DNA of 53,328 nt from a virus (IMGVR_UViG_3300047480_000319:1-53328); one strand, 5' to 3'. Positions 43,301 through 51,277 are shown, numbered from the stretch's first letter. Notes: generated by a model not told the origin, from the sequence alone. Numbers and translations are program-made.

Positions 43301-46300
43301 AAGATAATAGTTATCGACAATCGGTAATGAGTCGGGCGACCATGAAACATCAAACGTAACAGCTTTTTTAACAGCACTCGATCCCAATGATGCTTTGCTT
43401 TTGTAAGTTAATGCGTCAATATTAGAACTACTGTCTCCTACATTGTTAATAATCGGATTAGGGTCGATATTTAAATAGCCGTTTACTTCCTCACCGAATA
43501 TAATCGAACCGATCGGAGTAGAATCGGCCGATGCACTAATTTCGACAGAATAATTAAGTGTACTAGGAATCGCAGTTGCACTAATAACAGTTTGTCCGGA
43601 AGTAAATGCAGGATCATCGATAATCATTCCTGGAGAAATTGTTCCGGCAACATTGCCGATAATCATAGTTGTTGGATTCGGTCCTAATGCAATTCCTCCG
43701 CTGATATAGGTTCCTACCGCTGCATGGATCGGAACAGTATATCCGATAACTCTATGAATACGTCCGTTCCATGCAGTGATATATATTCCCTTATTAATTT
43801 GGTCGATAGTAGTTTGTTTATTAACTTCTAATACTGCAATTTTATTATCACCAACTTTTGATCCTTGAGTTTTTGTAGGATCGTTAGGATCAACATTTGT
43901 AATGTTTAATGTGTCAGTAACAAATTTATAATAATTGAAAGACGCATCACTTTGAAGAATAGCAATATTATTTCCTAATAATTCCCCGGTCGATTCATTT
44001 AGGTTATATGCTAAGATACGATAAATGTCTCCTAGATTTTCATTAAATTGTAATGCGGTTGACGGACGAGTAGGGCGAACATTATCAATATTATTAAACT
44101 TAAAGTTTTGTAGATTTCTTATAGTAACAATTTGTCCGTCATATAAAGGAGCAACTAACCCTATACTCGATCGACCATCACTACCTGCTGTGCTTAAATT
44201 TAATTTAAGAACAGTCTGTCCATTTACTGTTACTGTAGTATATTCTACAGTATTAACTTCGTATCTTACGACACCGAAATCATCATTAGTATGATCGATT
44301 TCTAATTCAGTTGTGTTATAAGGAGGATAATCATAGCCAATAATGTAAATAGACAGAGCTTGTGTAGTTACAGTCGGTTCCATTTCTTCGGCAAATAACC
44401 CTCTCTTATACACTTGCGCAACCTGAACCATGTTCTTTGCAAGGGTAACAGAATCGGGTTTTTCGGTTACATCCGATCCAGACGCACGTAACCCGTATGT
44501 TCCGTGAGCGTTTGATCCTGCAACAGATCGAATCTGTCCACCATTGTTAGCCCAATAGTGCGTATGACAGTAGTAAGTGAATGTAGATACTTGTTCCGAT
44601 ACGCCACCGTTAGTACAAACAATCGCATAACCTAGATCATTAATCATTGCAAAGTCGTTAGCAAGCATTGACTTATTACCGCCCATTTCGATATTAATAC
44701 CGATGTTTGCACCGTTGTTTAAGAATTCGATAACAGTATCTTTAATAGTTTCGACGTCATTTAATATGTCAGTTCTAGCAGATAAAAGTCCGCTGTCGAT
44801 GCTAGTTAATGTCGGTCCGGTTCTAGTTGTCGGAGTATCAAATGTTTTATCTACAACATAGTCAATTAAGATATTACATAGATTAGATAATTCGGTGCCT
44901 TCAGCTGATGTTGCTGCTGACAGCGAAGTATCTTGAATTAAAGGGTTACCTGATGATTTAGACCACGCAACATTATTTGTAACAATATATCCTAAAACAG
45001 TTGACAATCTTCCAAATGCTGCTGCGTGTACTGCTTCTTGACCTAGAATATAACTTGTCGAGCCTCTATAGTATGAAAGTGCAGCATCATAAGTCATACT
45101 ATTTCCGCCGTACATTAAATCATAACATAATGCATCAAGAATATACCCAACGTCTCGTTGACAAGTTACTGCGCTATAATTAACAATGTTTTTAACAATA
45201 TAGTTACTAGAAATCCATGCAGTAATTTCTTGTTTAATAAATTCTTTATTTAAAATTATTAAGTTCTTTGCTTTTGCAAGATTTGTATTAAGATTGCTAT
45301 ATGGACTTGGTGGGTAATTTACTGTAACACCCGTTGCAGATCCTTGATCAATAATCGAATTAATAATTGTAATGCATTCGTCGAGCGCAGTGGTAGCATC
45401 GACATTACCCGATACTAGTAAAGCTGCTTCTTCTTTGGCTTTATTCATACCTGCTAATGTTTGTAGTTTTTGACTTGAAACTACAACATCGCTGTATGAT
45501 CGGAGATATGATAACCCTGCTTTAACTGATTGATAGTTTGATAGTGTTCCACCGCCGTTTGTAATAGCCATATCATATGTTATTGCTTCGAGAATTAATC
45601 CGACATCTCTGGCACATTTAACATTATTGTAAACTCCAGCTGCATTGTACGGAGTATTAGTGCTTAATGTTAATACAGCAGTTTTAGTAGTTGAATTAAA
45701 ATCAAGGACATCGTTAATTTGATATCGCTGACCTTGTAAGTAGAATGCACAAGGGGGCTGCGGAGGACGTATATCTAATCCACTATTAGTACTTCCAGTG
45801 ACTGTAATGTTAACTCCTCTTCCGGATGTAGTCTTAACCGGAATTGTAAATCCCGATCCAATGCTTCCGATATTAGCAGTCATAGAGCCAGTAGCACTTG
45901 TTACATCAAATTCTGATCCTCCTAATATTTCGCTAATTGTAATCTTATTAACAGTAGTGTCGATCGTTTTAATATAATAAGTAGTATCAACAACAACTCC
46001 GCCGAATACAGTACCAGTAAATTTGATAGGATTATTTACTGATAAGTTTTGTACAGAATTTAATGTAATCTTATTATCGCTATCGTTAGTAATCGATACT
46101 GTCTTAGTAATAGATAAATCAGTATTAAGAGCTTTTAATAAATCGTCAGCTTGATAACGGTATCCACCTTGATTTAATATAACATTTGTAACAGATCCGT
46201 TTGTGACAGTAATATCGGCAGTAGCAGATAATCCGCCTATTACCGCAGTCATAGACCCTGCAGATGTTAGAAGTTCAACAGTATCACCGTCATATGATTG

Positions 46301-49300: not shown

Positions 49301-51277
49301 AATGTCAGGAACAGTACCGTTTTGAATAATATCAACAATAGTAGCTATGTTTGCTTTAACGGAATCGATGGCTAGAATTGTGCCGTTTAACACAGAAGGA
49401 ATACTGAATTCTCCGATTCCAGATACATCCGCGGTAGTTGTAAAGTTTAGTATTACAATAGAACCTTCAATACTTACAACTTGTGAATTTAAAGTAATCC
49501 CATAACCTGACACAAATTGATCTTCTGCAATATTTAAAATAGTTGAAACTGTAATAGCATTTGTTCCAAATGTTCCAAGTCCGCTAACAGTTCCTGTATT
49601 TGGTAAACTTAAGGTAATTTCGGTACCAACGATTCCTGTAATTACTGCTAATGTATTAATATTTGTGCCGGATACATTCATTCCTACAACAAGACCTGTA
49701 TTATTTTCTACAGTAATAGTTGTTGATCCAGTACTTCCGCTAATCGGAGTTACTACTCGAGCACTAGAAATAGTTGGCTTTGCTACTACTCCTAAAAGTG
49801 TATCACCAAAATTAACAATAACATCGCTAATTTCTTCTTCACTTAAGTCGGTTCCGTAATCAGCAAAATTTAATGCTGTTTGAACACTTTGATAATTTGA
49901 TTGGAAGATAATGTCATAAGATATAGCATTAACTAGATCCTCCATAAAAGACAATAGTTCCGGATTGTCATACGAGAAATTAACAATTCTATCACGAACA
50001 AATTTAATAGCTTCGATAGTTTGAACTAACTGTCCAGATATAACTTTAGATGAAGTTCCATTAAAGTATAAAGATCCAGCTAAGGTTGAATTATATGTTG
50101 TATCGAGTACTAAATCGTAAGCAATTGCATCTAATATTAATTGGACATCTCGTTGGCATTTTGCTTTACTATATGAAAACTTGTTGACATATTTCTTATT
50201 AATATATGCAATAGTTTCTGATTGAATAAAGTCTCTATTTGCTTGTAATAAGTCAAATGCATCTTGGTATCCTTCAACATTCTTATTACCGCCATTAAGG
50301 GTTACACTCTGAATAGTTGAGAATGTTTGATCTGGACCGATAGTGTATGTAATACGTTGTCTGTAAGGGCCTGGTTCCTGTGATGCTAAGTTAATAAGAT
50401 TCTCTGCTTGTAATGCAGCAGCACCTACAGTTTTATATGCATATTGCCAGTAACGCCCTTCTTTACCTGTTGGACTCTTTTGTTGTAAATCGTCTCCTTG
50501 TGTCGATGATACAAATAAGTTTACAGAACTAGAATAGGTATTATTATCAACATAAAATTTACTTGCTGCTTGCAGATCAGATGCACCGTTTGGTGTTCCA
50601 AATCCTTCAAATGGACTTGGATGATCGCTTAGGTATAATGGACCAGTCAATGTATCGCCGCCGCGATATACTACATCTCTCCTTTGAACAGCTTCTGATG
50701 CTAAGTAGTTTCCTGTTAAAGTCGAATCGTAATCGGCATCATTAAGATCGGGATACGTAGGTTCCTCGCGAACACGTAATGCTCCGTCAATTTGTCCTGT
50801 AGATGATACTCGAAGATATCTTCTATCTGCATATCCTTTGTTAATTGCTAGCTGGTCGATACTAGTAGTTGTTTGTGGATATGTTGCATTAAATGCGTCG
50901 ACAACAGTTTGACTTGGTTCAGGTAATCGACCTATACCAAATCCGTTTGCGTTCATTGGAGAGTTTAATACCGGAGATATGTTGCTAATGTCGGCATTAA
51001 TAGTTACCGAATCATTGTTAGTTTTATCAATAGTAACTCCGGTTCCTGCAATAAGATCTCTTGCAGTTAATCGATCCCCAACAGTACTAGCCATAATAAT
51101 TTGATTAGCTTCGTACGACGATGCATCAGATAGTGACGTAAATGCAATTGTTCCTTCTACTCCGAATACTGCATATATTTCGTTAAAATTTTCGTTTACT
51201 TTTCTAAACGATTCACGAATACTATCACCAGTTCCGTCATTTCCTTGAACGCCGATATCAATTATTTGCTTTGACAT
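40391..51277 (-). CDS. Giant (3628 aa) tail fibre/spike structural protein
   Basis: gp9/gp10-like N-terminus, KFYVD/KNYVD fibre motifs, beta-helix segments, helical CxRD repeats, and a C-terminal YADLAEYY...GRVPVKV chaperone-like domain. Confidence 0.8.

Follow-up and report, generated by a model that had tools for sequence, protein, structure and literature searches.

Remote phycobiliprotein homologues with a conserved Cys-x-Arg-Asp site are predicted as tandem domains in a giant tail fibre/baseplate-type protein of a jumbo myovirus

The alpha and beta subunits of phycobiliproteins (PBPs; PF00502, e.g., 8iml_A and 1f99_A) share a globin-like core with the stretch Lys-Cys-x-Arg-Asp-(Ile/Val)-Gly-Tyr on the central helix at Cys84. 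The CXRD motif within this stretch is the bilin-attachment motif of PBPs and is also found in BBAG-1 and BBAG-3, which according to Rockwell et al. (2023, PMC10151467) bind bilins without lyases. In the same account BBAGs are described as PBP paralogues outside photosynthesis, occurring as single-domain cellular proteins beside bilin genes in genomes with heme oxygenase and ferredoxin-dependent bilin reductase, and those examined were reported to be photoinert or weakly fluorescent. Adjoining phage genes for heme oxygenase (hemO) and bilin reductase (pcyX/pcyA) have been described from large phages of aquatic environments, the hosts of which are apparently not cyanobacteria (Wegner et al., 2024, PMC11480375; Chen et al., 2020, 10.1101/2020.02.13.942896). 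Chen et al. report ho1 and genes resembling pcyX from huge phages of freshwater. Wegner et al. call such genes “still enigmatic” and mention a phytochrome or BBAG as a mere possibility; in the portions of text available from both papers no phage-encoded bilin acceptor is named. Likewise, the advantage of the bilin genes of Prochlorococcus phages is described as unclear by Clokie et al. (2010, PMC2984593). Here, we analyzed the virus sequence IMGVR_UViG_3300047480_000319:1-53328 (in the following “the window”), which is an entire IMG/VR virus record of 53,328 bp with an estimated completeness of ~14%. Its giant open reading frame (ORF) P0001 (3628 amino acids (aa), positions 40391–51277, minus strand) codes for a protein with six domains which, as judged from profile comparisons and structure models, are remote homologues of the globin core of PBPs that lack the N-terminal hairpin.

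P0001 matches the PHROG tail-fibre families phrog_9851 (E-value 8.4e-48), phrog_5342 (E-value 7.5e-45, seven stretches), and phrog_4527 (E-value 4.4e-28), and it lies in a neighbourhood of tail genes. It is probably a giant structural protein from the baseplate or tail fibres of a jumbo myovirus living in an aquatic habitat, whereby its presence in the virion is deduced from annotation. The six domains are all-helical, comprise ~140–185 aa each, and are encoded on the minus strand like the whole ORF. R1 (aa 324–507, window 49757–50308) carries the motif C-Q-R-D at 50147–50158, R3 (aa 886–1055, 48113–48622) carries C-K-R-D at 48431–48442, and R4 (aa 1054–1237, 47567–48118) carries C-S-R-D at 47960–47971. 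R5 (aa 1846–1985, 45323–45742), the first helix of which is poorly conserved, has C-A-R-D at 45605–45616, and R6 (aa 1986–2151, 44825–45322), which was used for structure modelling, has C-Q-R-D at 45152–45163. In R2 (aa 655–819, 48821–49315) the Cys is replaced by Phe, with F-K-R-D at 49148–49159 beginning at aa 707. Five of the six domains therefore bear Cys-x-Arg-Asp on the central helix in the register of Cys84. From the composition of P0001, which contains 23 Cys residues in total, 0.037 occurrences of C.RD would be expected. All 15 domain pairs match by BLASTP (E-values 1e-22 to 0.019), 14 of them with E-values ≤1.5e-5.

An initial annotation, made from the sequence alone, had already pointed to this region (45100–50280; the end of R6 at 44825 lies slightly beyond it) and had listed seven repeats. 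All seven strings quoted there occur in the P0001 translation where they had been placed, and the statement that five of them keep C-x-R-D was accurate, with motif starts at aa 374 (50158), 946 (48442), 1103 (47971), 1888 (45616), and 2039 (45163). Six of the repeats are true domains, whereas the seventh is not a separate domain by profile search but a 14-residue partial copy of the central helix inside R1 (aa 442–455, window 49913–49954), in which the Cys, Arg, and Asp are missing. The helix A..LL..N..FI..E..A(Y/W)I ahead of the motif, which had been noted for most of the repeats, can be aligned in all domains except R5, where it fits poorly.

Every sequence signal that links these domains to known proteins is weak individually, and all of them point to PBPs. 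PF00502 was the sole Pfam match of the full-length P0001 (E-value 0.088, 13.2 bits; 12.1 bits in a second search), and the only two NCBIfam matches were TIGR01338, C-phycocyanin alpha (E-value 6.9e-4, at aa 1870–1928 within R5), and NF058506, C-phycoerythrin alpha (E-value 3.2e-3). When 66 repeats were searched singly against Pfam with E-values up to 10 allowed, four matched PF00502 (best E-value 2e-4), which was still the most frequently matched family. Searches of 177,635 distinct PDB sequences, with matches considered at E-values up to 10, gave seven matches for R6 alone, all of them PBPs. A profile from the six window repeats matched only phycocyanin alpha chains (32 of 32), and with a profile from 66 repeats PBPs made up 33 of the 35 matches, the best of which was CpcA 8iml_A (E-value 0.0018, profile positions 14–111 on chain residues 40–145). 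In these alignments the Cys of the repeat always falls on Cys84, and they also include the A..L..N helix of PBPs ahead of the motif and the GG turn after it. This agrees with the PBP motif that the initial annotation had given (KCARDIGYYLR..TY....GG after A...L..N...).

For a profile–profile comparison, cpcA/cpcB loci were collected from cyanobacterial genomes by a DNA motif scan, which yielded 131 distinct alpha and beta chains. With hhalign, the alignment of 66 repeats reached a probability of 84.6% (P 6.8e-6) against CpcA/CpcB, and an alignment of 601 repeats reached 95.2% (P 2.6e-8) against the 131 chains over 97 columns (repeat 9–106 on PBP 37–142); against the alpha chains alone the probability was 94.9%. 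The reversed PBP alignment gave 0.1–0.2%, and ten out of ten column shuffles stayed at ≤1.7%. Thus, the comparison with the Phycobilisome family and the PDB, which the initial annotation had put forward as a check, found PBPs almost exclusively, albeit with weak scores in the single searches. The N-terminal PBP helices that mediate alpha-beta pairing are named the X-Y hairpin. This hairpin is judged to be absent from the phage domains, because no alignment covers PBP residues 1–32 and the longest ones start at residues 37–40, with most of the remaining ones starting deeper in the chain.

The predicted structures point in the same direction. Template-free AlphaFold2 modelling of R6 from a 66-row alignment resulted in six main helices with a predicted local distance difference test (pLDDT) score of 90.9 and a predicted template modelling (TM) score of 0.86. 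Among the 30 matches listed from ranks 1–50 of a Foldseek search of the PDB with this model, 29 were PBPs (TM-scores 0.56–0.69, probability 1.00), and the remaining one was labelled “bacterial fluorescent protein”. R6 is thus predicted to adopt the globin-like core fold of PBPs. As a motif-free control, a 290-aa relative lacking Cys, Arg, and Asp was folded from its own 64-row alignment (pLDDT 89.0). It was modelled as a beta-sandwich with the helical domain inserted, and PBPs were its sole PDB matches at a probability of at least 0.99 (TM-scores by target 0.46–0.62, 8–10% identity), whereas rows for alpha-2-macroglobulin and C3 had probabilities ≤0.23 and root-mean-square deviations (rmsd) of at least 18 angstroms. 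The predicted PBP fold was therefore recovered with R6 as well as with a paralogue without the motif. The proposal of the initial annotation that a virion fibre protein carries tandem globin/PBP-fold domains is borne out by the profile searches, hhalign, and the fold models, the fold itself being a prediction.

The 290-aa relative belongs to a family of 286–310-aa proteins (P0215, P0201, P0164, and ~100 others) encoded on contigs of up to 288 kb, which consist of the beta-sandwich and one inserted domain copy and have neither a Pfam family nor an informative name. We considered these proteins as free-standing versions of the pigment site, but this was rejected as the Cys, Arg, and Asp of the triad are absent. 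A tblastn search with one of the 290-aa proteins against phage isolates gave no match.

In a profile search of 1.84 billion representatives, 1448 proteins matched the domain with E-values ≤0.001, 598 of them with E-values ≤1e-30. The family proteins reach 6382 aa and contain up to 36 matched stretches each. Site statistics were derived from 1363 near-complete copies from 151 proteins, which are not phylogenetically independent. The Cys is conserved in 93% of these copies, the Arg in 94%, and the Asp in 97%, and the complete Cys-x-Arg-Asp triad is present in 1243. The position before the Cys is Lys in 51% of the copies, and Gly is found at position +5 from the Cys in 78%. The triad Cys forms the sole Cys-rich column of the domain, while the family proteins contain 0.68% Cys overall. 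Where the Cys is present, Arg and Asp are both kept in 1243 of 1269 copies, compared to 33 of 94 copies without Cys (odds ratio 88). Ser, Phe, and Tyr are the commonest substitutes for Cys. The domains differ from PBPs in an Asp at +14 (100%) and a Tyr at +30 (97%) from the Cys, which are specific to the family and exceed the triad in conservation, as well as in a long ordered loop. Furthermore, they are covalently strung along virion fibre proteins, with 6 to 36 domains per chain, and as the X-Y hairpin is not covered, alpha-beta pairing and rod assembly are not expected.

As judged from its DNA polymerase, the phage is a jumbo myovirus and not a T4-like cyanophage. The nearest isolates by this protein are Sinorhizobium phage Phosso (51% identity), Agrobacterium phage Atu_ph07 (47%), and Escherichia coli jumbo phages (44%). 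Identity is 80% to a complete relative (G001, a 372,173-bp IMG/VR genome with terminal repeats) and 70–84% to six other large contigs. The complete relative encodes a 4043-aa orthologue of P0001 with 39% identity and has 13 domain matches across two giant ORFs. A search of its genome for psbA/psbD gave no match. Given this finding and the affinity of the DNA polymerase, a cyanophage that has captured a host PBP was rejected as an explanation, and host mimicry, which the initial annotation had considered, found no support; by its DNA polymerase the phage is not a cyanophage. The DNA polymerase gene is a single ORF in the window and in the complete relative, while it is split in the relatives G064 and G003 (query 1–605 and 597–888) and is annotated as two coding sequences in Atu_ph07.

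The initial annotation had also suggested looking for bilin synthesis genes. The window, covering ~14% of the genome, contains neither heme oxygenase nor bilin reductase, whereas the complete relative encodes both in adjoining genes (ferredoxin-dependent bilin reductase, 66.4 bits; heme oxygenase, 62 bits), as in the published phage cassettes. They are located at G001:283390–287049 in a row with genes for a RimK-like ATP-grasp protein, ClpS, and Hsp20. Conversely, relatives of the reductase are encoded in 272 viral stretches, and from the best 80 of these the 21 contigs of at least 60 kb were inspected for the domain. It was present in eight of the 21, namely in five of five contigs with a completeness of at least 55%, in three of five at 30–50%, and in none of 11 at ≤23%. 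Thus, domain and bilin genes share a genome in the complete relative and in all five relatives that are at least 55% complete; in the complete relative they are ~60 kb apart and unclustered. The three isolates closest to the window in their DNA polymerase, Phosso, Atu_ph07, and Escherichia coli phage Turkey3, lack the domain and likewise the reductase. With regard to gene distance the phage domains, which are moreover repeats, are unlike the BBAGs, a comparison that relies on the published description of the latter.

Building on the observed repeats, the homology, the predicted fold, the triad conservation, and the co-occurrence with bilin genes in the lineage, we lean slightly towards a reading in which most of the domains carry a bilin bound as a Cys thioether. 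In such a scenario, a giant fibre or baseplate protein would have six globin-like PBP homologues strung along its chain, the central helix of which retains the chromophore site of PBPs, Lys-Cys-x-Arg-Asp. The bilin would be produced in the infected cell by the phage heme oxygenase and ferredoxin-dependent bilin reductase or, in the case of cyanophages, be taken from the host, and it would become linked to the triad Cys in most domains. Attachment might proceed without a lyase, by analogy to what has been reported for BBAG globins. The pigment could serve light sensing, photoprotection, or stabilisation. Tetrapyrrole binding, which the initial annotation had suggested, gains support because 1243 of the 1363 copies have retained the triad and the complete relative encodes heme oxygenase and bilin reductase. 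Hence, a bile pigment may be present in some phage particles, where it might allow light to be sensed.

Several observations weigh against this reading. None of the scores reaches the curated thresholds of the PBP families, as the PF00502 score of 13.2 bits is below the cut-off of 22.2, and the NCBIfam scores are far below theirs (TIGR01338, 19.7 vs. 269; NF058506, 17.8 vs. 225). None of the six window repeats matched PF00502 on its own, giving just scattered weak matches to Pfam, and neither did 62 of the 66 repeats. The hhalign probability against beta chains alone was just 25.3%, and the Foldseek matches of R6 have E-values never better than 2e-3 and rmsd values of 4–7 angstroms. A long, confidently modelled loop (model residues 115–138) could fill the space beside the Cys. 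The counts on conservation and on co-occurrence stem from sequences that are phylogenetically non-independent. With regard to the genes, heme oxygenase and bilin reductase are missing from the window, which is itself only ~14% of the genome, and are ~60 kb away from the giant gene in the complete relative. Three of the first five repeat-bearing contigs checked, all fragments, had no reductase, and among 43 further repeat-bearing contigs, fragments of 2–25% completeness, it was seen in just one. No CpeS/CpeT-type lyase was found in five large relatives, E/F-type lyases not having been searched. The nearest cultured reductase is that of Pelagibacter phage Mosig (42% identity, with an adjoining heme oxygenase gene), and yet Mosig has no domain copy. 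The same applies to P-SSM2, which bears bilin-reductase genes (Clokie et al., 2010, PMC2984593) and has no domain copy either. In P-SSM4, pcyA is present, but all domain copies, three weak ones in a 7312-aa open frame (NC_006884.2, 70557–75647), lack Cys, Arg, and Asp. A constant companionship of heme oxygenase and reductase with the domain was therefore rejected on the basis of Mosig and P-SSM2.

It might be instead that the domain is a pigment-free structural module, that is, a PBP-derived helical domain reused as a rigid spacer of the fibre, in which Cys, Arg, and Asp are kept for an internal hydrogen-bond or packing network or for contacts between domains or subunits, without any ligand. 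We regard this as a serious though rather unlikely possibility. The proteins in question are otherwise fibre-like and contain up to 36 copies, as is common for spacer modules, and the invariant Asp at +14 and the Tyr at +30, which are not conserved in PBPs, suggest a structural network specific to the family. The domain is also present in phages without a known need for pigment, and bilin genes occur without the domain in Mosig and P-SSM2. Copies without the triad that are predicted to have the same fold (R2 of the window, the 290-aa family, and P-SSM4) would fit a spacer as well, but as these copies are still predicted to fold, the triad appears to be unnecessary for folding. Other features speak against a mere packing role. 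Loss of the Cys is tightly coupled to loss of Arg-Asp, as is expected of a single functional site. The Cys is replaced by the bulky residues Phe and Tyr as well as by Ser, which suggests a space beside the Cys and not a tight core, and a lone unpaired Cys kept in 93% of the copies is unusual for pure packing in an extracellular protein. In addition, the lineage has heme oxygenase and bilin reductase, and no alternative acceptor of their product is known (PMC11480375).

According to another explanation, which we consider improbable, the ligand or reaction partner of the Cys site is not a bilin. It could be heme, a metal, or a molecule on the host surface that is trapped by a reactive Cys, for instance through an internal Cys-Gln thioester like that of thioester-domain adhesins. 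Heme is likewise bound by globin-type folds, and each domain of the adhesin-like protein combines one invariant Cys with a near-invariant loop Gln (Q130 of R6, at least 90% in one alignment). However, the match to the bilin site of PBPs extends beyond the Cys alone and comprises the full stretch Lys-Cys-x-Arg-Asp-x-Gly-Tyr. The column statistics show no conspicuous position for a proximal His, the R6 Foldseek matches listed include neither thioester-domain nor heme-globin structures, and the alpha-2-macroglobulin and C3 matches of the 290-aa protein had the low probabilities and high rmsd values given above. Finally, chance or convergence, i.e., an unrelated helical bundle with a PBP-like motif, would be in line with the sub-threshold sequence scores and with most PDB profile matches spanning ~25–30 residues around the motif, but it is very improbable given that the best alignments extend over ~95–100 residues and three to four helices, that the reversed and shuffled hhalign controls fail, and that the fold match persists in a motif-free paralogue with 8–10% identity to PBPs.

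The domain is also found in cultured cyanophages. A tblastn search with aa 325–1230 of P0001 against 50,697 phage records matched 33, the first name word of which was Synechococcus, Prochlorococcus, or “Cyanophage” in 32 cases and “Marine” in one. The features under these matches are annotated as tail fibre, baseplate wedge, or structural protein, in agreement with BFVD structure matches. S-PM2 has 10 domain matches in ORFs of 3340 and 3792 aa, P-HM2 has five in gp7 (PHM2_086, open frame of 4458 aa) and a 3682-aa ORF, P-HM1 has five, and DSL-LC03 has four. The motif K-C-x-R-D-(I/L)-G is read in copies from S-PM2, P-HM2, and DSL-LC03. Giant gp7-like or tail-fibre-like proteins of T4-like cyanophages (P-HM2 gp7 and S-PM2p218) carry the same domain with K-C-x-R-D, although they belong to another lineage with genomes of 170–200 kb and have two to five clear copies per protein. 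No domain copy was found in searches of P-SSM2 and P-SSP7. In the S-PM2 record (AJ630128.1, 165928–177267) 15 tRNA features are listed inside the giant coding sequence S-PM2p218, which also holds domain copies; this looks like an annotation or coordinate oddity.

The distribution of the domain can be set beside adsorption data. As reported by Liu et al. (2019, PMC6628666), P-HM1 and P-HM2 fail to adsorb when kept dark, whereas P-SSP7 and P-SSM2 adsorb without light, the latter less than in the light. For S-PM2, a light requirement of adsorption is reported by papers that cite Jia et al. (2010), Liu et al. among them. As far as these sources go, five phages are concordant, with the domain present in the light-requiring S-PM2, P-HM2, and P-HM1 and absent from the dark-adsorbing P-SSM2 and P-SSP7. 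We take this as a lead, as only about three or four of the phages are independent. P-HM1 and P-HM2 are one species, P-SSM2 is still light-enhanced, and P-SSP7 is a podovirus. It is conceivable, although unlikely in our estimation, that the domains act as bilin photosensors in baseplate or tail fibres, so that light would be perceived by the virion itself and adsorption confined to daylight. If true, this would explain the light-dependent adsorption of cyanomyoviruses, which is independent of host photosynthesis, and also the heme oxygenase and bilin reductase genes in jumbo phages of non-photosynthetic hosts. An argument against it is that the BBAGs examined in print were photoinert (PMC10151467).

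In full-text literature, supplements such as the tree of Rockwell et al. (2023) and the contig lists of Wegner et al. (2024) not being covered, no account was found of phage structural proteins that contain PBP-like domains. The domains would add a large undescribed branch (1448 cluster representatives) to the superfamily of PBPs and bilin-binding globins, residing in phage structural proteins and not in antennae. For phages of non-cyanobacterial hosts they are a candidate acceptor of the bilins that result from the activity of phage heme oxygenase and PcyX/PcyA, and they are likewise a candidate phage-side component of light-dependent adsorption. As the cultured phages S-PM2, P-HM1, and P-HM2 carry the domain, these proposals are testable now, and should bilin binding fail, the family would still clearly exemplify how the fold of a pigment protein has been reused in a fibre.

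The genes around P0001 are consistent with its assignment to the tail. Downstream of it, a run of further tail-fibre-type genes extends over 31985–40391 on the minus strand (39903–40391, 36295–39888, 34942–35481, and 31985–34927), none of which has the domain; within the window it was seen in no ORF other than P0001. A megablast search of the region against the phage collection gave no match. The first 35 aa of P0001 (51173–51277, minus strand) form an N-terminal adaptor motif, I.(I/L)G...ND(G/R)(T/S)GD.(I/L)R..F.KVN.NF, which is common to two neighbouring fibre genes on the same strand (34942–35481 and 39903–40391). Both of these short genes match phrog_677, baseplate wedge tail fiber protein connector. 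A 246-aa ORF among the tail-fibre genes (35491–36231, minus strand) has hydrophobic N-terminal segments and matches phrog_35201, which is of unknown function; it contains a stretch HRLLSHRSW, which we take to resemble a His box of the desaturase type. A 756-aa Clp-type ATPase is encoded elsewhere in the window at 20209–22479.

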